A stretch of 64,000 bases of DNA from Limnochordia bacterium (GTDB taxonomy: Bacteria > Bacillota > Limnochordia > Darwinibacteriales > DTU012). Position numbers and translations under genes: made by a program. The stretch lies in NCBI GenBank assembly GCA_007116995.1, contig SKHL01000030.1, positions 11,525 to 75,524 of the forward strand. Reading direction: 5' to 3'. This document shows, piece by piece, positions 11,936 through 58,158 of this stretch. The notes under the pieces were generated by a model. That model had not been told where the DNA came from, did not search any database, and saw only the letters and a program-made list of their open reading frames with translations. Each line of letters begins with the position of its first letter. Position 1 is the stretch's first letter.

Positions 11936-12922
11936 CTATATATAGAATTCCGACCTAGCTATAGACGAAATTACTCCGTAGTAATTTTTCATAGTGAAAG
12001 GAAACCCAGCCGCATACGGATGACCCCCACCACCAAACTGACCGGCAACCTTACTTAAGTCAACACTATCTTCCAATTTATGAAACCCATTCCTCCGAAG
12101 AGAAACCGACAACCTATTCATGTTAATGATGAAAATAAACAAGAGTTCCTTATCCCTAGAGAACACATACTCCGCAGTCTCAGACGGATACTTCTCTGAA
12201 AACGCTAATCCATAGTATACCGGAACTTCATTCTCCCTTTTAAACTGAAACCGATATACCCTTACACCCTTCGTATGTTTATCTCGTATCTTCGTTAACG
12301 TACGAATAACCGCCTCTTCCACATCAGAAAACTCCACTACCGGATTCATAATAAACCGAGCACGAAAATCACATAAACCCAAATCCTTCAGAAGACAGTT
12401 TAATTTATCAATCTTCTCCTGAGAATCCAAATATTGTTGACTCGTTCTTCCCTTAGAATCCCATAAGTCCGTTAAATATACTAACTCATGATACCGTAAT
12501 AAATTTATCTTTAATCCCTCTAACTCTTCATTATTCTCACACTTACCTATAACCCAATTATACACCAATAACGACGCACTATCTCCCTCTCGTACACACA
12601 TCCAATCAAAGTCCAAATTTTTTCCATCAGAGCTTAAATTTTCCAACGCTGACTGATGATGATCTAATAACACCTTAGAATTAGGGACGGAATCCAGTCT
12701 CTCCGCTACTCTCCGACTCACACTAATATCACAAATAAAAATTGTAGTTTCTACATCATACCGATATGAATCTAAATACTCTTCAACCTTCTCATCTATA
12801 TCATGATACCCACAACTCTGAGAAGTGATTGTATACCCTAACCCATGATAATACTTATACGCTACCGTGTTTGAAACAATCCCGTCCAAATCAGTATGAT
12901 GAAAAATGATAACCTTAGACAA
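11936..12922 (-). CDS. DHH-DHHA1 phosphoesterase (NrnA / RecJ-core-like nanoRNase or exonuclease)
   Basis: DHH motif I HHTDLDGIVS, motif III LLDHHQS, and DHHA1 GGGGHPYAAGF near the C-terminus. Size (328 aa) is typical of NrnA-type bifunctional oligoribonuclease/pAp phosphatase. Confidence 0.8.
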   Translation of the reverse strand: MSKVIIFHHTDLDGIVSNTVAYKYYHGLGYTITSQSCGYHDIDEKVEEYLDSYRYDVETTIFICDISVSRRVAERLDSVPNSKVLLDHHQSALENLSSDGKNLDFDWMCVREGDSASLLVYNWVIGKCENNEELEGLKINLLRYHELVYLTDLWDSKGRTSQQYLDSQEKIDKLNCLLKDLGLCDFRARFIMNPVVEFSDVEEAVIRTLTKIRDKHTKGVRVYRFQFKRENEVPVYYGLAFSEKYPSETAEYVFSRDKELLFIFIINMNRLSVSLRRNGFHKLEDSVDLSKVAGQFGGGGHPYAAGFPFTMKNYYGVISSIARSEFYI

Positions 12923-18327: not shown

Positions 18328-18798
18328 CTAGAAAATTTCCTCCCCGTAGATATCATCCAATGTTTCCGTATCCTCAGTCTTTTTGTCTGACTCCTCATAC
18401 GCCTGAATAGCGGCACGAACATCACTCGAAGATTCTTGATTATATTCCACCGGATCAGACTCCACTTCCGGTTCTCTATCAATACCCTCCACAAAATCCA
18501 AAAACCGAACAGAATTCGCCACAACCTCAAAACTATTAGGGATAGACCTTCCATTCTTCACCCTAGCTCGTAATCGACCATCAACGAGTATGTGTCTACC
18601 CTTCTTTCCGTACTTCAACATATAATCCGCTATACCCTTAAACAGTATAACATCTATAAACTCATACCTATCATCACATAGTTCTTTGAAGTCTTTTTTG
18701 ACTGATACCCTCATCTTAGCCATACTAGAACCCGACTTCGTTTCAATCAGAGAAGGCTCATACAGAATCAAACCCTCCAAGATAATCTTATTGATCAT
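18328..18798 (-). CDS. ssb: Single-stranded DNA-binding protein (OB fold with acidic C-terminal tip)
   Basis: MINKIILEGLILYEPSLIETKSGSSMAKMRV... resembles the bacterial SSB N-terminal OB fold. The C-terminus is acidic, ending DDIYGEEIF (SSB-Ct DDIPF-like). Confidence 0.8.
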   Translation of the reverse strand: MINKIILEGLILYEPSLIETKSGSSMAKMRVSVKKDFKELCDDRYEFIDVILFKGIADYMLKYGKKGRHILVDGRLRARVKNGRSIPNSFEVVANSVRFLDFVEGIDREPEVESDPVEYNQESSSDVRAAIQAYEESDKKTEDTETLDDIYGEEIF

Positions 18799-18810
18799 TT
18801 TTACACCACC

Positions 18811-19125
18811 CTAAAAAAGACTCATGTCGGGTAGGAGAATCTTGTCTCCTACCCGTACCACAGAAGTATCTCTCATACCATTAACCACTCGTATCGCATG
18901 AACAACCTCTCTTGAGTCATGACCAGAATAATGTTGTCTCGCAATACTCCACAAAGATCCCCCATCACCAACATACATAAATCCAACCACATGACTATCC
19001 GTTAGAAGTATATTGAAAGATCTATTCACACGTTCCTCCAACACACAGAACAGAAAATGACCAATACTCACGATAAAAGCTGCAAACACCAAAACCAAAA
19101 ATAGTACCACTAACCCCCTAAACAT
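18811..19125 (-). CDS. Membrane-anchored LysM-domain protein
   Basis: N-terminal TM (LVVLFLVLVFAAFIVSIG), then LysM-like VVGFMYVGDGGSLWSIARQHY...VNGMRDTSVVRVGDKILLP. Confidence 0.6.
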   Translation of the reverse strand: MFRGLVVLFLVLVFAAFIVSIGHFLFCVLEERVNRSFNILLTDSHVVGFMYVGDGGSLWSIARQHYSGHDSREVVHAIRVVNGMRDTSVVRVGDKILLPDMSLF

Positions 19126-22349: not shown

Positions 22350-23498
22350 CTAAACAGCTATAATCAACCGATTCTCCGCCCGAGTTATCCCCGTATATAA
22401 CCATCTCTTCTCATTATCCCGGCAGAATCTCTTCTCATCATACAGTAATACGTTACGAAATCCTGACCCCTGGCTCTTATGACACGTTAGGGCATACCCG
22501 AAATCGAACCAACATATGTTCCTGTTATCATTTAAATTCTTTTCATCCTCCAAACCCAGAAAGTCATGAGCGTCTACAATTAACCGATTGAAGTACATAC
22601 CTTCTTCCATAAAGTCCGGTCTAAAATCTAACTCCATCAGTCTCTTATCATGATTAATACCGTGAATCTTCGTGACATACCCCATCAACCCGTTAATCAT
22701 GGGATACCCTTCTAGAGTCAGATCCCATATATTTTTACCAGAAATAATCTTATCGTTAACTAACGGATACTCAGAATCAAACCCAAGTAATTCCCTAACC
22801 TGATTATTCAACTTTCTACGAGTTCTATGAGTACCACAGATAACCTGAGACGCCCCCAACAACATCTTATCTGTAACATCCTTTTTCCGAATCACCACTA
22901 CGTCATCACCATAACTACCTACCTGTAACTTCTTCCCCTGTCTCACCAACATAGATACTCGAATAATACTACTACACTCCGCCTGTCTATGAACCGTATC
23001 TAAAAACACGTCCGGATCATCCAGATACGTGTTATTCTTATGTTTAACCGGAGGCAACTGACCCGGATCCCCTATCGCAATCACCGGAAGACCAAACGAA
23101 AGAAGATCTTTCATCATTTTCTCCGGTACCATACTAATCTCGTCCACCACCACTAACTGAATACCATGTTCAAGAGTATCCTTTAGACGAAATTTCATAT
23201 CTTTTAGTCTCCGATTACCTTCCACCCTAACCCCAGAAGACTCAAAATCGTACATCAGTCTATGAATCGTAGTAGCAGGACAACCTCTCTGATTTAATAC
23301 CAAAGAGGCTTTTCCTGTGTACGCACAAAAATGTACCCCCGTAATCCCAATACTTTCTACCATCTGTTTTACAATCTCTGTTTTACCCGTGCCGGCATAC
23401 CCGGCTATCGTAAATACCTGTCTATTACCCAACTTATACCATTCTGTAGCTTTCGCAATCGCCCGTTTCTGATCCCCTGTTAAAATTACTTCAGCCAT
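22350..23498 (-). CDS. SF1 DNA helicase, Dda/RecD-like
   Basis: Walker A IAGYAGTGKTEIV, motif Ia AYTGKASLVL, Walker B LVVVDEISMV, motif III GDPGQLPPV, motif V/VI GYALTCHKSQGSGF, and ...LYTGITRAENRL. Confidence 0.85.
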   Translation of the reverse strand: MAEVILTGDQKRAIAKATEWYKLGNRQVFTIAGYAGTGKTEIVKQMVESIGITGVHFCAYTGKASLVLNQRGCPATTIHRLMYDFESSGVRVEGNRRLKDMKFRLKDTLEHGIQLVVVDEISMVPEKMMKDLLSFGLPVIAIGDPGQLPPVKHKNNTYLDDPDVFLDTVHRQAECSSIIRVSMLVRQGKKLQVGSYGDDVVVIRKKDVTDKMLLGASQVICGTHRTRRKLNNQVRELLGFDSEYPLVNDKIISGKNIWDLTLEGYPMINGLMGYVTKIHGINHDKRLMELDFRPDFMEEGMYFNRLIVDAHDFLGLEDEKNLNDNRNICWFDFGYALTCHKSQGSGFRNVLLYDEKRFCRDNEKRWLYTGITRAENRLIIAV

Positions 23499-28388: not shown

Positions 28389-28838
28389 CTAGCCCACCCT
28401 GTCCAAAATCAGTCTACCATTCAAGTGATCCAATTCATGTTGAAATACACACGACCGTAGATCCACAAACCGCCCCTTCTTAAACTTACCCTCTTCATTG
28501 TAGTACTCCACATCTATCTTACGAGGACGAGTAATCCCAAGTTCCTTCCCCGGAACACTCAGACACCCCTCTTTATGTACAGCCAAAACCTTACCCTTCT
28601 TAACAATTTTAGGGTTAATTACCGTCTCTATTTTAGACCCTTTTCTCATAATAAAACACCGATACAATAAACCCACCTGAGGCATAGCCAACCCAAGACC
28701 TTCTACCTCCAGTAATAAGTCCTTCATCTTATCTATTTCCGGACGTAATGAATCCAAAGTCTCTAAATTAACGTCCTCAGATACTTGTCCCAAAACAGAC
28801 CGTCGCTCTTCATTTTTTAACGTGATGATCTCCATATC
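28389..28838 (-). CDS. def: Peptide deformylase
   Basis: All three PDF motifs: GLGLAMPQVG (motif 1), EGCLSVPG (motif 2), QHELDHLNG (motif 3). True start is MEIITLKNEER (ATG about 28838). The upstream part of the tracked ORF contains the CCGTATATATAGG promoter motif and terminator hairpin. Confidence 0.85.
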   Translation of the reverse strand, partial: DMEIITLKNEERRSVLGQVSEDVNLETLDSLRPEIDKMKDLLLEVEGLGLAMPQVGLLYRCFIMRKGSKIETVINPKIVKKGKVLAVHKEGCLSVPGKELGITRPRKIDVEYYNEEGKFKKGRFVDLRSCVFQHELDHLNGRLILDRVG

Positions 28839-28848
28839 TCCACCCCCA

Positions 28849-28872
28849 CCTATATATACGGGAAATATATAC
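28849..28872 (-). promoter_or_regulatory. CCGTATATATAGG motif upstream of def
   Basis: GTATATATTTCCCGTATATATAGG 13 nt before ATG of def; preceded by hairpin 28879-28903 plus T7. Confidence 0.5.
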
Positions 28873-28878
28873 AAAAAA

Positions 28879-28903
28879 AGAGACATTTCAAAAAGAAATG
28901 TCT
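28879..28903 (-). terminator. Rho-independent terminator closing the ORF-less unit upstream of def
   Basis: 9-bp stem GAGACATTT/AAATGTCTC, loop CTTTTTG, then TTTTTTT. Confidence 0.6.
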
Positions 28904-29244
28904 CCCTTATAAAGTGTATAGGTAGAACCATTACTTATAAAGCACGTTCACTTATTGTCTACTTGGCTACTTCATCTATACTCCCGGCTGTTCATGTATT
29001 GTTGTCCGGCTGATCATTTCCACCCGAAGTATCTGGCTGACTTCGATCATTCTATTTTGTTACCAGACTTATCAGCTAAGTACCTTTTCCTAAGATAGGT
29101 ACAACACCCCAGTACCCTTCGTGACTTTTCACCTACCATAAACTTTCAGACACCTATACGAAAAAACCTATTCGGTAGTCTTTAACTACCCGAGAACATT
29201 GTTCTCACTCCTTTAATATGATTTTATTGTCAAACTAATTAGTA

Positions 29245-48629: not shown

Positions 48630-49031
48630 CTATAACAACTTCAGATCTCCCGTTATCTTATCAATCTTCGAACTCAAATGAGGTCCAACCGCAACCGCAG
48701 TATATGTAGGCTCCTTAAACTCCGTCAAACCCATATCTTGAACTATAGAACACGGTAGGGCGTTGTTACACGCTCTACGATAAACAATGAACAATTCCTC
48801 TTCACTGTCTACACTCACAACTACCTTCTTACATAACCCCTGAATCCACTCCATCATATAGGGTAGACTTTCGGTTGATATCATACCGACCTCAGACCCT
48901 AACCAGTCCCCAACACCTACTCTATCTGTTAAAACCATCAAAGAAGCATGTGCCCCCTGAGCAATCATCTTACCCTTCCTCATATTTAAGTCCTTACGAA
49001 CTACGATTACTTGTTTGATATCATCCATCAC
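48630..49031 (-). CDS. Peptidyl-tRNA hydrolase, PTH2 type
   Basis: KQVIVVRKDLNMRKGKMIAQGAHASL closely parallels the PTH2 signature [25 protein letters not shown], with a C-terminal TAVAVGP block. Confidence 0.8.
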   Translation of the reverse strand: MMDDIKQVIVVRKDLNMRKGKMIAQGAHASLMVLTDRVGVGDWLGSEVGMISTESLPYMMEWIQGLCKKVVVSVDSEEELFIVYRRACNNALPCSIVQDMGLTEFKEPTYTAVAVGPHLSSKIDKITGDLKLL

Positions 49032-49600
49032 CCTACCTCCCGTTCTTCCTCCTCTTCTTCACCACTACACATCACATGAAAAGGAGCCTTTACATAGGGT
49101 GTAAGATATTCCGCCGCCTCTAACGCAAGAATAATTCTCTCCCGAGGACTTCTCCCCTCTCCATCAGAACTATAAAGTGAACCAAGAGCAACCTCATCAC
49201 CCGATCCAACCGCCGAATATCCACAATCCGGTATACCCACTTGATAATCACTGTCTACTTCATAAAGATTCCCCCGATACCCTACTAAGAACTTACCACC
49301 AGACTCTTCACTGTTATTGACCCTCATATACCCACCAGCTTTAAAACAGTCTCTTACACTATCAATGAATCGAGTAGTCATATACTGATAGTCCGACTCC
49401 TCTAATCTCTGTTTAGGAACATGGAATGAATACTGTAATAACTGACCCATACGATATGAACTAGTATATCCTATAATAAATTCCCCAGTTTCAAACACTT
49501 TCCCATCTCTTCTGATCGTATTAAGTCTAGTATTAGACCCACAACTATCTCCACCGATCCAAACAACTCCATCTTTGACAATACCCGCAATACATGTCAA
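49028..49600 (-). CDS. Ntn-hydrolase peptidase, HslV / proteasome-beta-like
   Basis: N-terminal nucleophile immediately after Met (MTCIAGIVKDGVVWIGGDSCGS vs HslV [21 protein letters not shown]) and a later SAVGSGDEVALGSL block (HslV IAIGSGGPYAQAAA). Acidic EEEEEERE tail. Confidence 0.6.
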   Translation of the reverse strand: MTCIAGIVKDGVVWIGGDSCGSNTRLNTIRRDGKVFETGEFIIGYTSSYRMGQLLQYSFHVPKQRLEESDYQYMTTRFIDSVRDCFKAGGYMRVNNSEESGGKFLVGYRGNLYEVDSDYQVGIPDCGYSAVGSGDEVALGSLYSSDGEGRSPRERIILALEAAEYLTPYVKAPFHVMCSGEEEEEEREVG

Positions 49601-51293: not shown

Positions 51294-51686
51294 TTACCAC
51301 TCATAATTACGAATTTGTACGGGACCATCTTTAGTTTCCTCTTTCCATCTCTCTTTAAGAAACCTCTCTACTCTCAAGTAATCAAAAAACCCAAAAGTCA
51401 TACCGACCCCATCAAACATAAAAATCGAAGCGTGAACCTGTGATAGCGGATAATCCTCCCCAAAAAAAGAATTGGAGTATCTGTTTTTGACTTTCCATTC
51501 TCTACTCTCAAACTCCCTTATAAATATCTCAAACGTACCCCGACCAGACTTCTCCGAGTTGTTATTCACCGCCTCAAAGTGAAATCTCCAACTCCCCACT
51601 ACTAAAAAAACTTGTATCACTACTAGTAAGAGTACTATACACAAAACCAGAAATGCACCGTACAATACCGGACCCCAATCTAACAC
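51294..51686 (-). CDS. Membrane-anchored hypothetical protein
   Basis: N-terminal TM YGAFLVLCIVLLLVVIQVFLVV. Confidence 0.45.
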   Translation of the reverse strand: MLDWGPVLYGAFLVLCIVLLLVVIQVFLVVGSWRFHFEAVNNNSEKSGRGTFEIFIREFESREWKVKNRYSNSFFGEDYPLSQVHASIFMFDGVGMTFGFFDYLRVERFLKERWKEETKDGPVQIRNYEW

Positions 51687-53310: not shown

Positions 53311-53538
53311 TTACCTCCCTCTCAATTTCCTACCTAGTAACGTAAAACCCACCCAAATCATGAATCCAGTAGCCGAGTAAATCACCATACATATAACCAC
53401 CAGTAAAGTGATATTAAAACACTGTTCCGCAGTCAGATAGTCACGATAAAGTAAGTAAACCGTGATAGTAGTCAACACCTGTAAAATAACAAGACCAAAA
53501 ATCTCCTTACTCCAGATACTCCTTAGATATTCCCTCAC
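53311..53538 (-). CDS. Small membrane protein
   Basis: 75 aa, two hydrophobic helices. Confidence 0.4.
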   Translation of the reverse strand: MREYLRSIWSKEIFGLVILQVLTTITVYLLYRDYLTAEQCFNITLLVVICMVIYSATGFMIWVGFTLLGRKLRGR

Positions 53539-53939
53539 CGTAACTCCTTCCTAACTCTCATTAACAACTTACCCAGTCTATTCTCCCCTACCCCATTACA
53601 CTGACCCCAGTATGTATCTCCCCAATAATTATCTTCAACAATTTCTATGTCTCCTGTTTTAAGTAATAGATCCCTTAATTTTTCATTACCAAATTTCTGT
53701 TTCAAAAGAAGATACATAATGTCCTCTTTTACTTCTTCCCAATCTTCCCTTAAAACCAACTTACGACCCAATCTCTTACAGTGACCCGGAGTAGAACTCC
53801 GAAACTGATACCATAAAGACTTATCTTTTGTCTTTGAACACTGATACGCATTTTCTACTGTAGGAAATACGTACCCACAAATACATACCTCACTAGGGTA
53901 GAAGTTGGATAGAAAATTATACTCGTCTCTGAAATACAT
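53535..53939 (-). CDS. NADAR-domain protein (YbiA/DUF1768-like N-glycosidase / ADP-ribose-processing fold)
   Basis: FYPSEVCICGYVFPTVENAYQCSKT...PGHCKRLGRKLVLREDWEEVKEDIMYLLLKQKFGNEKLRDLLLKTGDIEIVEDNYWGDTYWGQCNGVGENRLGKLLMRVR follows the NADAR block order (FSNF.P, E+.+Q.K, P...K.LGR, R.DW...K...M......KF, L..TG...LVE, WG.G..G.G.N.LG..LM..R). Confidence 0.7.
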   Translation of the reverse strand: MYFRDEYNFLSNFYPSEVCICGYVFPTVENAYQCSKTKDKSLWYQFRSSTPGHCKRLGRKLVLREDWEEVKEDIMYLLLKQKFGNEKLRDLLLKTGDIEIVEDNYWGDTYWGQCNGVGENRLGKLLMRVRKELR

Positions 53940-54931: not shown

Positions 54932-54966
54932 TACCGTAATGAAAAAAAGACCTTCAAATGAAGGTC

Positions 54967-55245
54967 TTACTTTGTTTCGAAGTGTTTTTTTAGTTCTTTC
55001 TCACATCCCTTACACAGAAAAGTATCCTCAAACCCAATCTCCACTCTCTCCAATTTATCTAATTCATCTCCCTGTAACCCGCAAACAGCACAGCTTGTAC
55101 CCTCTTTTCTCAAAATAATAGAATCCTCATTAACATGAATAGAAATCGCATCTCCCTCCCGAATCTTGAACACTTTTCGTATCTCTTTAGGGATAACAAT
55201 TCTACCTAAATCATCAATCCGTCTTACAATTCCTGTCGATCTCAT
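54967..55245 (-). CDS. AbrB/SpoVT/MazE-family swapped-hairpin DNA-binding protein with C-terminal Cys pairs
   Basis: The N-terminus TGIVRRIDDLGRIVIPKEIRKVFKIREGDAISIHVNEDSIILRK is the AbrB-N signature, followed by CAVCG...CKGCE. Confidence 0.6.
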   Translation of the reverse strand: MRSTGIVRRIDDLGRIVIPKEIRKVFKIREGDAISIHVNEDSIILRKEGTSCAVCGLQGDELDKLERVEIGFEDTFLCKGCEKELKKHFETK

Positions 55246-55258
55246 ACCTCTACCCCCT

Positions 55259-55513
55259 CTATTTATACTCTACTACAACCGGAGAATTCTCAATTCGAAC
55301 CATCAACTCATCGTACACTGTATCCGAGTCCAAGTCCCGAGCTACCTGATACACCTCATAAATCGAGTAAATAGCATCTTCAAACTCTACAGATAAATCT
55401 TTAATAGAAGAAACCCCATTCTCACCTACCACATACTTAATGTTCTCCGTATTTGTTACAATCACAATCCCTCTAATTTCACTCATTTTCCATATTCCCC
55501 TCCCTAAACGCAT
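55259..55513 (-). CDS. Small hypothetical protein
   Basis: 84 aa. Confidence 0.4.
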   Translation of the reverse strand: MRLGRGIWKMSEIRGIVIVTNTENIKYVVGENGVSSIKDLSVEFEDAIYSIYEVYQVARDLDSDTVYDELMVRIENSPVVVEYK

Positions 55514-55694
55514 TTCTTACTTTTCGAACCACTGTAATACTCCCAAACCGAATCACCATAGTATCCTTCAAATGTGTCAACGCCTGATTAACCGCGTCTT
55601 CTTCATCAACACAACTCCCTATGAAAACCTGATACATTGTACCATTAACATCGACCTCTACAACCCTAGAAGAATCCAACTGTTCCTTATTCAT
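55479..55694 (-). CDS. Small hypothetical protein
   Basis: 71 aa. Confidence 0.35.
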   Translation of the reverse strand: MNKEQLDSSRVVEVDVNGTMYQVFIGSCVDEEDAVNQALTHLKDTMVIRFGSITVVRKVRNAFREGNMENE

Positions 55695-55890
55695 TTTTTA
55701 TCATCCCTTCCCATATGTCCGAAGACATACCGATAATCAAGATAACCCCACAAACAAAAGAAGACAACAGAAAAGCCGATACCCCCAGAGAAATTTCCGA
55801 CCCAAGTCCCCTAGTAAGTAGTAAACCTCCTAAGACCCCCGTAGCCACAGCAGTCCAAAATAACGTAAGTACCTGTCTCCAATTAATCAT
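55687..55890 (-). CDS. Small two-TM membrane protein
   Basis: 67 aa, hydrophobic. Confidence 0.4.
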   Translation of the reverse strand: MINWRQVLTLFWTAVATGVLGGLLLTRGLGSEISLGVSAFLLSSFVCGVILIIGMSSDIWEGMIKNE

Positions 55891-55964: not shown

Positions 55965-56942
55965 CTATACCATCCTATCTATCCTATCTATTCCACCTTC
56001 ACTAAACCTCTTCGGATACTCGACTAACTTACTCAACAACCCATCATGTAAAAACATTAAATCTTCTTCCCGAACCCCCTCTCCGTACCAATACCTCAGT
56101 AATATCGGCATGAATAGTGAATTAACACACTTAAACTCTCTTCTATGAGGAGTACCCGGAAATATCTTCAGATACCCATCCACATCCGGCAAATACCCCA
56201 CAATAAATCGTTCCACACGTACGTCAAACCCATGTTCCTGTTTCATTTTTGATACAATTTTTGAGATAACAGTATCCTCTAACTTATTATACGTAATAAC
56301 TTCATCACACGTAAAAATCCGAATGTCTTCCAGCCGAAGAACCTTTAATACCTCTTCCAATACAAAACTCATCATATGTTTTTCAATCGTAGTCTGCCTT
56401 CTCGGATTACAGTTACCAAAAATAACCTGTCTAATATACTTCGACTCAATAAAATGTTGAACATCTGTATACCGACTGATAAACTCTTCATATGTCTCTG
56501 AGTTACCCACAATACTAGAGTCAAAGTACTTCAAAGCGGTATAACAACCCTTTACCAGATCAAAACTAATGAACCCCGAATTGATATTACTATGATTGAA
56601 TAGTGACCCCGAACTGATATTACACTTCTTTACCGGAAACCAATTCATATCACACTCATTGAATTCCCGATACCCCTCTGTACCCTTAATATCTGAGATA
56701 ACCCGTTCCTTCAAATCCCCATACGCATCCATATAACTCTTTTCAGAACCAAACTTCGAGACCTCTGAGACAAACTGATCCCACTTCTCTAACGTCCCAA
56801 AATGACTGTCGTATAACTTCAGACGTGAAGTAAAAATCGGCTCCCGAAATATTTTAATCGGAAACCCGTAATTCTTACAAAACCTCTCTTTAATCTTTTC
56901 CGTCATTTCCATATGTACGACCCTCCCTAAATTAGTTACCAC
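55965..56942 (-). CDS. Hypothetical protein (325 aa)
   Basis: Long ORF, no motif recognised. Confidence 0.5.
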   Translation of the reverse strand: MVTNLGRVVHMEMTEKIKERFCKNYGFPIKIFREPIFTSRLKLYDSHFGTLEKWDQFVSEVSKFGSEKSYMDAYGDLKERVISDIKGTEGYREFNECDMNWFPVKKCNISSGSLFNHSNINSGFISFDLVKGCYTALKYFDSSIVGNSETYEEFISRYTDVQHFIESKYIRQVIFGNCNPRRQTTIEKHMMSFVLEEVLKVLRLEDIRIFTCDEVITYNKLEDTVISKIVSKMKQEHGFDVRVERFIVGYLPDVDGYLKIFPGTPHRREFKCVNSLFMPILLRYWYGEGVREEDLMFLHDGLLSKLVEYPKRFSEGGIDRIDRMV

Positions 56943-57136
56943 TCTTCGTCAAGAGAACCCCTCTCCTCTTCTGTCCTTATCTGACCTCCATGTAAAGAAT
57001 TAAGAATAAGAGTTAAATTCACCTGTTGTATCTCAGAGTCACTGTCAGTTTCCTCTGTGTCTATAGTCAAGTCATAATCACCGTACGACTTAATCTTTGT
57101 CAGTCTATTCCAATCCCGATCCTCTCCCATTACCAC
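56936..57136 (-). CDS. Small acidic protein ending ...GSLDEEW (W-tail family)
   Basis: 66 aa (likely ATG at 57130); C-terminal tail shared with the three ORFs upstream. Confidence 0.5.
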   Translation of the reverse strand: MVMGEDRDWNRLTKIKSYGDYDLTIDTEETDSDSEIQQVNLTLILNSLHGGQIRTEEERGSLDEEW

Positions 57137-57330
57137 ACCTCTTCCATAGTCCCACTATCTCTATCCCGAATCTCTTCTTCTTCTCCTGAAATAATAAGAT
57201 ACTGAAACTCACCGTCAAAACACGTTCTGAAACAATCCTTCAAACTAACGTATCCATCTATATACTGATCAAATACAGTAATCTCATCGTCTTCTTCCAC
57301 AAAGAAAACCCTTTCTATGTTATCCATCAT
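57130..57330 (-). CDS. Small acidic protein ending ...SGTMEEVW (W-tail family)
   Basis: 66 aa. Confidence 0.5.
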   Translation of the reverse strand: MMDNIERVFFVEEDDEITVFDQYIDGYVSLKDCFRTCFDGEFQYLIISGEEEEIRDRDSGTMEEVW

Positions 57331-57348
57331 GACTACCTCATTTCTAAC

Positions 57349-57633
57349 CTACCAAACTTCTCTTAATGACCCCAAGTCTTGATTGATTTCTTCTTCCGAC
57401 TTCTCTACTGAAAAAACCACTTCCCACTCTTTCACAACCTCTTTCACGAAAACATCATTTTCGTCATAACCTGATATTTCCACCGTAGTACCCGGCATTC
57501 TCTTTATAGACCCATACCCAGAAGATTCCCAACTATTGTCAGTAAAAGTACACTCAGAAACCAGAATCCTTTTTCCCCGTAATTCCGCAAAGACTCTCTT
57601 TCCTGACATAAAAGAACTATTCCAATCCCTCAT
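57349..57633 (-). CDS. Small protein ending ...GSLREVW (W-tail family)
   Basis: 94 aa; N-terminal MRDWN similar to the EDRDWN of 56936-57136. Confidence 0.5.
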   Translation of the reverse strand: MRDWNSSFMSGKRVFAELRGKRILVSECTFTDNSWESSGYGSIKRMPGTTVEISGYDENDVFVKEVVKEWEVVFSVEKSEEEINQDLGSLREVW

Positions 57634-57636
57634 ATG

Positions 57637-58113
57637 TCACCAATCCTCCATAAGAACACTACCTTCCATATTCTTCTCCATAATTAAATTCTCATAGTCT
57701 ATCACCCACTCTAGGGTGTATACCGTAATACCCAGTAATTTATCCAATCCTTCTATCTTATGATACGACCTAAAATAGTTCTTAACCCAATCCAAGTTCT
57801 CCTGTAGATCCTGTCTGTTACCAATATAATGAGAATTTACAGGAACCGTCTTCATACTCTCATAGTCACAAAACGCATCAATAATCGGAACATATTTAAC
57901 ATAGTGTAACACTCCAGAATAACCTTTTAAATTTACGTCCTCTAGAACCGTATCGTCTTGAGTATTACCCCATAACCGATTCTGATATTTCAACGCCTTT
58001 TTAAGCGAATAAACAGCTACCTGTACCAATTCCTTTATATCCGGTCTCTTCTTACCCAACTCCATGAAATCTGAATTAACGACCCAAGCTAGATCATTTT
58101 CAAAATCCCTCAT
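57637..58113 (-). CDS. Protein ending ...GSVLMEDW (W-tail family)
   Basis: 158 aa; begins MRDFEND; preceded by the CCCGTATATAGG motif at 58140-58158. Confidence 0.5.
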   Translation of the reverse strand: MRDFENDLAWVVNSDFMELGKKRPDIKELVQVAVYSLKKALKYQNRLWGNTQDDTVLEDVNLKGYSGVLHYVKYVPIIDAFCDYESMKTVPVNSHYIGNRQDLQENLDWVKNYFRSYHKIEGLDKLLGITVYTLEWVIDYENLIMEKNMEGSVLMEDW

Positions 58114-58139: not shown

Positions 58140-58158
58140 ATAGTCCTATATACGGGAA
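58140..58158 (-). promoter_or_regulatory. CCCGTATATAGG motif upstream of the W-tail gene run
   Basis: CTTTTCCCGTATATAGGACTATGG about 30 nt before ATG 58113. Confidence 0.45.

Follow-up and report, generated by a model that had tools for sequence, protein, structure and literature searches.

Four adjacent small acidic proteins of a novel large phage share a C-terminal peptide ending in tryptophan, a possible docking motif

What does it mean when neighbouring small proteins with seemingly unrelated bodies all end in nearly the same few residues? The question is raised by a locus in a 64,000-nucleotide (nt) stretch of DNA, contig SKHL01000030.1 of the Limnochordia bacterium assembly GCA_007116995.1 (positions 11,525 to 75,524), which comes from a novel large phage; we refer to this whole stretch as the window. 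Four consecutive minus-strand genes of the window, here called P1 to P4, encode proteins whose C-terminal tails follow one pattern. We asked whether this shared tail is real, whether it is kept as a peptide or as nucleic acid, and which explanation best accounts for it. The genes and their tail codons are listed below (aa, amino acids; pI, isoelectric point).

57637-58113, minus strand: P1, 158 aa, pI 4.87, N-terminus MRDFEN, C-terminus ...NMEGSVLMEDW
57640-57663, minus strand: P1 tail codons, G-S-V-L-M-E-D-W
57349-57633, minus strand: P2, 94 aa, pI 4.66, N-terminus MRDWN, C-terminus ...NQDLGSLREVW
57352-57372, minus strand: P2 tail codons, G-S-L-R-E-V-W
57130-57330, minus strand: P3, 66 aa, pI 4.05, net charge about -15, C-terminus ...DRDSGTMEEVW
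57133-57153, minus strand: P3 tail codons, G-T-M-E-E-V-W, containing a GAGGTG that doubles as the Shine-Dalgarno site of P4
56936-57130, minus strand: P4, 64 aa, pI 4.12, net charge about -11, N-terminus MGEDRDWN, C-terminus ...EEERGSLDEEW
56939-56959, minus strand: P4 tail codons, G-S-L-D-E-E-W

The four tails have a strict common core, [LM]-x-E-x-W-COOH, with G-[ST] before it, giving the overall pattern G-[ST]-(x)-[LM]-x-E-x-W-stop. The original prediction, made from the sequence of the window, had placed all four endings in one register; the pattern holds in all four, but the exact spacing does not, as P1 carries one extra residue between G-S and the core (G-S-V-L-M-E-D-W) and its G-S therefore sits one residue further from the end. 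An acidic stretch precedes the core, so the related segment runs to about 17-20 residues. Between the tails of P2 and P3, 20 aa can be aligned (BLASTP E = 5e-4; Smith-Waterman z = 6.5), and the corresponding z-scores are 2.9 for P2 with P4 and 2.2 for P3 with P4. From the amino-acid frequencies of the window, 0.02 endings of the form [LM]xExW would be expected among its 133 open reading frames (ORFs); we observed four, all adjacent. Across all six frames there are 215 ORFs of 50 aa or more; W is the last residue of 7 of them, and the motif is found in just these four, in agreement with the earlier statement that no other protein of the window ends this way. The tail is also absent from the 4,671 ORFs of 110 loci of related elements (1.27 Mb), and a general scan for neighbouring small ORFs with any common C-terminal heptapeptide recovered only the P1-P4 cassette, the 110 loci yielding no neighbours with a tail in common. 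The shared tail is thus real and not due to chance.

The gene models on which this comparison depends are largely those predicted: the four ORFs and their C-termini lie at the predicted coordinates, the start of P4 aside. P1 to P4 are consecutive and translationally coupled, with the predicted spacers of 3 nt between P1 and P2 and 18 nt between P2 and P3. Coupling of P3 to P4 stands as well, but not the 7-nt overlap that had been given for the pair, as the start codon of P4 is more likely the ATG at 57130 (64 aa) than the GTG at 57136. This ATG makes a 1-nt TAATG stop/start overlap with P3 and has GAGGTG 5 nt upstream, and the public gene call also gives P4 as 64 aa. A Shine-Dalgarno site was found for each gene: AGGAG sits 9 nt 5' of the P1 ATG, and GGAGGA within the P1 tail codons serves P2. 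The Shine-Dalgarno sites that follow P2 and P4 fall in the spacer, outside the tails, and both proteins still keep the tail. All four products are acidic (pI 4.05-4.87, against a window median of 5.8). P1 and P2 also share a reading frame, with just UGA-CAU between them before the P2 AUG (57631-57642, minus strand). Read-through of the UGA would thus join P1 and P2 in one protein; since two genes fall in the same frame by chance in 1 of 3 cases, this may mean nothing.

Is it the peptide or the underlying nucleic acid that has been kept? At identical tail residues with degenerate codons, the same codon is used in 5 of 19 pairs, against 7.2 expected from codon usage. Ser is encoded by AGT, TCA and TCT, Leu by CTT and TTA, and Gly by GGT and GGG; codon identity in the tails is 0.29-0.57 at the third position and 0.64-0.79 at positions 1 and 2. 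The tails show no repeat at the DNA level, and Rfam gave no match on either strand. Because the synonymous sites are randomised, it is the peptide that selection acts on, and not DNA, RNA or a ribosome-binding site; on this codon evidence, the tail is under purifying selection as a peptide, and its copies are old.

This result bears most directly on the idea that constraints on the nucleic acid at gene junctions have produced the common ending as a side effect, whether through an embedded Shine-Dalgarno site, through coupled translation or through a junction at which recombination shuffles ORFs. The idea has some grounds, given that the tail codons of P1 and P3 do hold the Shine-Dalgarno sites of the next genes, that other coupled genes of the window have E/G-rich ends, and that the P1 tail GAGGATTGG resembles the P2 head AGGGATTGG. 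However, P2 and P4 keep the tail with the following Shine-Dalgarno site in the spacer, a purine-rich Shine-Dalgarno site leaves Gly, Ser/Thr, Leu/Met and Trp unexplained, and no other coupled gene of the window ends likewise. The randomised synonymous sites, the lack of a DNA repeat at the tails and the empty Rfam search also count against it. The codon analysis largely refutes this explanation, to which we give very little credence.

If the four proteins were paralogues in the ordinary sense, their similarity should extend beyond the tails. After heads and tails were trimmed, all six pairwise comparisons of the bodies gave Smith-Waterman z-scores of -0.8 to 1.1, like shuffled controls, and BLASTP among P1-P4 detects the tails alone. 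The bodies are therefore not obviously homologous, as had been proposed, and similarity does not run through them as it would in whole-length paralogues of one fold, the outcome that the original prediction had named as speaking against it. A second conserved element lies at the other end. An N-terminal RD[WF][NE] motif is common to P1, P2 and P4 and missing from P3; similar N-termini (MRDW/MRDF) had earlier been ascribed to two of the proteins, but P4, with (MGED)RDWN, makes a third. No other ORF of the window has RD[WF] in its first 12 residues. The z-scores of this motif are 3.3 for P2 with P4 and 2.4 for P1 with P2, and the heads share exact DNA repeats of 11 and 13 nt, the longer of which is located as follows.

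57107-57118, minus strand: R-D-W-N of the P4 head, inside the 13-nt exact DNA repeat GGGATTGGAATAG, which is also present in the P2 head at 57617-57629

A single-sequence AlphaFold2 (AF2) model of P2 (predicted local distance difference test, pLDDT, 62) has a beta-rich body at residues 14-76 and an acidic helix at 80-89, and its termini, residues 1-8 and 88-94, fall below pLDDT 50. Both conserved motifs lie on these ends, which is weak evidence that they are borne on unstructured termini. The model matched no known fold, and searches of Pfam, PHROG and PADLOC returned nothing for any of P1-P4.

With these data in hand, one can ask whether P1-P4 are diverged tandem paralogues of one small fold, in which the RDW and ExW termini belong to the fold or to an oligomer interface (for example, terminal strands or Trps clasping each other) and no external partner is involved. 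That the genes lie in tandem on one strand, that both termini are conserved in three of the four proteins, and that P2-P4 are all small, acidic and apparently beta-rich (by the model for P2, by sequence inspection for the others) would all be expected in this case, and the short exact repeats in the heads (11-13 nt) suggest a shared ancestry. On the other hand, the lengths differ 2.5-fold (64 to 158 aa), the bodies have z-scores near 0, an acidic low-complexity linker or helix parts the tail from the body, P3 is without the N-terminal motif, and the termini of the P2 model have pLDDT below 50 rather than being packed, which again is weak evidence. We consider paralogy with a purely internal role for the termini unlikely. 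A common origin as such is another matter: the cassette arose most simply by tandem duplication with fast divergence of the bodies, and this is compatible with a docking function.

The explanation that fits best is that the tails, in a lineage-specific tandem family, serve as a short linear motif by which the C-terminus docks on one and the same partner. We put its probability at about 0.45, and prefer it because it accounts together for a terminal peptide selected at the protein level, for coupled expression, for acidic bodies unrelated to one another and for a terminus that is probably flexible. P1-P4 would then be small acidic proteins peculiar to this lineage, encoded in tandem and expressed together from a single phage-specific promoter, whose bodies either diverged beyond recognition or were never related, and in all four of which the C-terminal peptide was kept. 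The architecture so preserved would be an acidic helix or linker followed by G-[ST]-(x)-[LM]-x-E-x-W-COOH, with an N-terminal (M)RD[WF][NE] in three of the proteins as well. The terminal Trp and its free carboxylate, the Glu at -2 and the Leu or Met at -4 would insert into one pocket of the partner, with G-S as a hinge, so that four different bodies would be brought to, or compete for, the same site. A docking role was also the core of the original prediction. What survives of it is the discrete, protein-level module on unrelated bodies with coupled expression; its proposals for the partner (mimicry for an SSB pocket, a clamp, a protease adaptor or a capsid tag) have no direct evidence, and the canonical consensus motifs are unmatched.

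Homologues that keep the tail while their bodies diverge would be expected to strengthen the case. Our searches for distant homologues covered P1 among proteins and P2 among phage genomes. P1 matched only itself among 5.8e9 proteins; a full phmmer/HMMER search of 1.84e9 representatives returned P1 and a spurious leucine-rich repeat match (P0122), and a scan of IMG/VR returned nothing. P2 gave no tblastn match in 50,697 phage records at E up to 10. All four proteins form singleton clusters at 90% identity. The original prediction had proposed to see whether homologues keep the tail; with none found for P1 or P2, neither tail-keeping nor tail-lacking ones were seen.

DNA-level searches gave the same picture. 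No W-tail ORFs occur in the flanks of homologues of the 315-aa protein encoded next to P4 (described below) in 6 + 110 loci. A degenerate two-tail DNA pattern of about 40 bits, validated on the window, had 0 matches in IMG/VR with gaps of 134-226 nt (three spacings). Its 32 matches in Joint Genome Institute (JGI) metagenomes were all rejected as tandem-repeat artefacts, which arose partly because the stop code of the pattern, TRR, also admits TGG. These arrays (L012 9378-9877, L015, L024, L033, L035, L011, L027 and others) have units of 11, 23 and 68 codons, such as WEIDGRLIEDW and GTLVGTLGEHW, and are unrelated to the cassette.

Among relatives of the phage itself, a sibling in the same sequencing run is represented by L042 (ENA ERZ27301260 k141_1083534, 30.4 kb) and L043 (Logan SRR7083930_656850). 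Between the sibling and the window, identity is 50-89% for core genes and 83% for SSB, and several small genes are replaced; this comparison covers DNA that stops short of the cassette region. In a more distant relative of 132.9 kb (L154), the flanking ATPase and metallophosphatase genes are kept and the cassette is absent. As far as public data show, the cassette is unique, seen in one phage lineage only.

Several points weigh against the docking explanation. The strongest criterion for a short linear motif is conservation across divergent relatives, and the searches with P1 and P2 yielded no homologue in which the tail could be followed. The sole structural support for an exposed tail is the P2 model described above, which is of modest confidence. 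The tail matches none of SSB-Ct DDDIPF, clamp QL[SD]LF, encapsulin GSLxIGSLK (or its form GSLGIGSLKG), EEVD and the LAA consensus; it is accordingly assigned to no known family, and at most works like them. Finally, conserved termini in tandem genes are equally expected from diverged paralogues with structurally important termini.

As predicted, the gene set is preceded by a promoter-like motif, which recurs through the window.

58145-58155, minus strand: promoter-like motif CCGTATATAGG, 32 nt upstream of the P1 ATG, with a T-rich stretch before it
63878, 58155, 52749, 51721, 45885, 33251, 32369, 30997, 28861, 19547, 15752 and 7639, minus strand: sites of the promoter motif (first base)

At 7 sites the motif occurs with at most one mismatch, where 0.77 would be expected, and each of these is on the coding strand. 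A relaxed form, a T-run followed by CCGTATA[TA]A[GA], has about 13 intergenic sites on that strand, ahead of gene blocks, and at several of them (for example, 51721, 45885, 32369 and 7639) it comes directly after a terminator-like hairpin and T-run; one such hairpin, at 51755-51732, was also found in a separate terminator search. The motif is kept in the sibling phage L042. Its sequence departs from the sigma-70 consensus; a sigma-70_r2 protein encoded in the window might read it. The same motif precedes the block that contains SSB, which suggests that the P1-P4 operon belongs to one temporal class with the replication genes. A 130-aa protein (51294-51686, minus strand), the first gene after another copy of the motif, ends ...QIRNYEW; this is an acidic-Trp end but not the tail motif, and the protein also has an internal LKERW.

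The product of this SSB gene has a C-terminal tail of its own, with which the W-tails can be compared.

18331-18357, minus strand: tail of the phage SSB, DDIYGEEIF (gene 18328-18798), its last 8 residues identical in the sibling

The ending DDIYGEEIF that had been reported for this protein is confirmed, and DIYGEEIF is identical in the sibling although the two SSBs are 83% identical. Just upstream of SSB, a 104-aa protein (18811-19125, minus strand) ends ...LLPDMSLF, which resembles sliding-clamp-binding peptides; its sibling orthologue (L042 9621-9977) is 48% identical and keeps ...FLPDMRLF. From these alignments, the lineage visibly preserves C-terminal docking-type peptides while the rest of the protein drifts. 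All that the W-tails have in common with the SSB tail is Glu at -2, acidity and a terminal aromatic residue. Since these features are shared by all five tails, and since the two gene sets share a promoter class, our first candidate for the partner is a protein of replication or recombination that recognises the SSB tail ...GEEIF of the phage as well. The further candidates, in order of preference, are the co-translated 315-aa polymerase-like protein, the capsid interior and a protease.

There are precedents for such an arrangement. In phage T7, more than one protein (gp2.5 and gp4, whose tails end in Phe) uses the same type of tail on one partner. The acidic tail of T7 gp2.5, with its terminal aromatic residue, docks on a basic patch of the polymerase (PMC12339929). 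Like the SSB-Ct and T7 tails, those of P1-P4 have an acidic stretch and then a terminal aromatic residue with a free carboxylate, as E-x-W in all four. They differ from SSB-Ct in ending in Trp rather than Phe, in having G-[ST]-[LM] upstream and in lacking D-D-D-[IL]-P-F; moreover, P1-P4 have no SSB or OB-fold match in Pfam or PHROG, and the P2 model has no fold match. Sliding-clamp peptides (QL[SD]LF; the tails of T4 gp43, gp33 and gp55) are likewise short and C-terminal and bring several proteins to one hub, and the phage encodes clamp-loader subunits. Clamp motifs, however, are hydrophobic and end in Leu or Phe, whereas the W-tails are acidic and contain neither Q-x-x-L-x-F nor Q-x-x-L-x-x-F. 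As for the EEVD ends of Hsp70 and Hsp90, the closest tail is that of P3, MEEVW, which has a terminal Trp, and the other three deviate; the top Pfam families listed for the window, a partial list, include no TPR family, the type of domain that reads EEVD.

A different set of precedents concerns address tags. Encapsulin shells share the HK97 fold with phage capsids, and their cargo-loading peptides are, like the W-tails, short C-terminal peptides that follow a flexible linker and bring unrelated cargo to one destination. These peptides have a G-S-L core motif (PMC7925596). That core is exact in P2 and P4, and reads G-T-M in P3 and G-S-V-L in P1. In contrast to P1-P4, which end acidic-x-Trp, encapsulin peptides end basic and often repeat the motif (GSLGIGSLKG); moreover, no shell gene adjoins the cassette, and its context is not late or structural. 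McdB is poorly conserved apart from an invariant Trp in its last four residues, for which shell docking has been proposed (PMC7182216). P1-P4 also have a Trp in the last four residues, but McdB has a coiled-coil, a Gln-rich region and a ParA-type ATPase as partner, and here no coiled-coil was found, there is no Gln-rich region and no ParA family is among the hits. In the T4 internal proteins, with their capsid-targeting sequence, and in Dot/Icm effectors, with their C-terminal E-block, unrelated proteins carry one terminal address peptide. The T4 tag differs in being N-terminal and cleaved at L/I-x-E; the motif of P1-P4 is C-terminal, where such cleavage would remove two residues. Effector signals are looser and belong to secretion systems that are not encoded here.

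Could the tail, then, be an address tag that loads P1-P4 into the procapsid for co-injection with the DNA? Its C-terminal location after a flexible linker would suit this, and [LM]-x-E formally fits the L/I-x-E site of the T4 prohead protease. Shell association has been proposed for the C-terminal Trp of McdB, and Trp ends have been noted in capsid-assembly proteins (PMC7182216). The surroundings speak otherwise: the cassette lies among small-ORF, nucleotide-metabolism and replication genes with no capsid gene nearby and no capsid or tail family among the families listed for the window, and it has the promoter motif of the SSB block, which points to early or middle expression. In addition, encapsulin peptides end basic rather than acidic-Trp, and highly acidic cargo beside packaged DNA would be electrostatically unfavourable. 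We regard capsid loading as improbable. In a broader proposal, G-S-L-x-E-x-W, perhaps with the N-terminal RDW as a second element, would be a modular address code that delivers unrelated small acidic effectors to one site. This site would be either the HK97-type capsid, for co-injection, with the peptide as the phage equivalent of encapsulin cargo-loading peptides, or a replisome or repair hub, where the peptide would compete with the SSB tail. This too we hold to be rather unlikely, if somewhat less so.

A final alternative is that the tail is a protease recognition element, either a timed C-terminal degron or a docking handle for a host AAA+ protease or for the HslV-family peptidase of the phage.

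49028-49600, minus strand: HslV-family peptidase (phrog_1040, E = 1e-23), starting MTCIAG and with an acidic tail ...SGEEEEEEREVG

The phage encodes this peptidase while the top families listed for the window include no match to HslU, HslV and the proteasome are gated by the C-terminal tails of their partners through a free carboxylate, and a common tail would give co-ordinated turnover of P1-P4. Nevertheless, the known signals (ssrA ...LAA, HslU ...DLSRFIL, HbYX and GQYL) are unlike L-x-E-x-W, and the peptidase gene is 7.3 kb away with terminator-like sites between it and the cassette; a role in proteolysis seems to us a long shot. The MTCIAG start of the peptidase would make a possible N-terminal Thr nucleophile, and its gene overlaps a conserved 133-aa ORF (phrog_1866).

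On the sequences alone, four further ideas were considered and set aside. Precursors of ribosomally synthesised and post-translationally modified peptides or of quorum peptides would have a signal or leader peptide and a modifying enzyme, and there is neither. The circular bacteriocin AS-48 joins Met1 to Trp70, but circular bacteriocins are cationic and hydrophobic and P1-P4 are acidic. Ubiquitin-like proteins or JAB substrates were rejected as P1-P4 have no Gly-Gly, and PDZ class III ligands as no PDZ protein was seen.

We now return to the operon and to the second of the partner candidates. Downstream of P4, the following features complete the locus.

55965-56912, minus strand: 315-aa polymerase-palm-like protein, starting 23 nt after the P4 stop, with its own GGGAGGG Shine-Dalgarno site
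54967-55890, minus strand: rest of the operon, with a 67-aa hydrophobic protein (55687-55890), small ORFs of 71 and 75 aa and an AbrB/MazE-type protein
54967-55245, minus strand: the 92-aa AbrB/MazE-type DNA-binding protein (PF04014, E = 1.7e-12)
54947-54968, minus strand: intrinsic-terminator-like hairpin and T-run, the next strong such site on the strand, which closes the transcription unit

From the promoter motif at 58155 and the terminator-like site at 54968-54947, the transcription unit therefore comprises P1-P4, the 315-aa protein, the 67-aa protein, the two small ORFs and the 92-aa AbrB/MazE-type protein.

The 315-aa protein, unlike P1-P4, belongs to a populated family: about 195 homologues, 35-45% identical to it, occur in genomes of Clostridia and on large contigs that are phage-like, the loci examined including the relatives L004-L009 and L044-L153. 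Pfam gave only a marginal, sub-threshold match to Gag_p24_C (E 0.085), and there was no sequence match in PHROG or the PDB. An AF2 model built with a 45-sequence alignment reached pLDDT 92. Its fold strongly matches uncharacterised giant-virus proteins (TM 0.85, E = 5e-17) from Klosneuvirus, Hyperionvirus, Pandoravirus and Medusavirus, several of which carry a fused R3H or DEDDy exonuclease domain, and weakly matches DNA polymerases, reverse transcriptases and a herpes helicase-primase subunit. The acidic residues D118 and D203-E204 are invariant in the family and would fit a palm active site. In two of three relatives inspected (L004 and L008/L009), an RlaP nucleotidyltransferase gene lies upstream of, and is translationally coupled to, the gene for the 315-aa protein; in the third (L006), small unannotated genes lie upstream. 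The P1-P4 cassette therefore occupies the position held by RlaP in L004 and L008/L009. RlaP is absent from the window, and P1-P4 are not RlaP remnants. In the phage relatives inspected, the gene for the 315-aa protein also lies near RNA-ligase and PNK-like genes. The family may be a mini-polymerase or RNA-repair module common to Clostridia phages and Nucleocytoviricota. The 315-aa protein is a natural, if unproven, candidate partner for the tails.

What kind of phage carries this cassette? The window has a G+C content of 39%, nearly all of its long ORFs are on the minus strand, and it is part of a 122.5-kb contig present in NCBI, ENA and Logan. This DNA is that of a novel large phage: its Dda/RecD helicase (22350-23498) is just 40% identical to the versions of Bacillus phages AR9 and PBS1, and megablast of the window against the 50,697 phage records gave no match. 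Genes for replication and nucleotide metabolism (SSB, clamp loader, RNase H, thymidine kinase, dUTPase and dNMP phosphatase) are accompanied by a DHH/RecJ-like protein (11936-12922), by a sigma-70-like factor (sigma-70_r2) and by genes of host-manipulation type (peptide deformylase, PTH2, NADAR, Prok-JAB and the HslV-family peptidase). No capsid, tail or capsid-like family is among the families listed for the window, a list that covers this part of the 122.5-kb genome. The genes for the NADAR protein (ADP-ribose processing), the AbrB/MazE-type regulator, peptide deformylase, PTH2, Prok-JAB and DUF4326 (53535-53939, 54967-55245, 28389-28931 and others, minus strand) form a rich set of candidates for host takeover or anti-defence. 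Relatives of one conserved gene of the window sit in the genomes of Lachnospiraceae and other Clostridia, which makes a gut member of the Bacillota the probable host.

For now, the reach of these results is that of one phage lineage and of a mechanism that we infer. A docking or address role for the tail would mark orphan phage proteins that cannot be annotated by other means as acting on a single target. It would also give an experimental handle on the hub to which they are brought, and would add a class, L-x-E-x-W-COOH, to the small set of prokaryotic and viral C-terminal linear motifs. More generally, such a role would mean that the sharing of terminal motifs among neighbouring ORFs can be used to mine effector modules in the dark matter of phage genomes. 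Should the tail prove to be a modular address code, it would offer a targeting tag of a new type that can be transplanted to other proteins, and sets of effectors could be recognised by it in the genomes of orphan phages.

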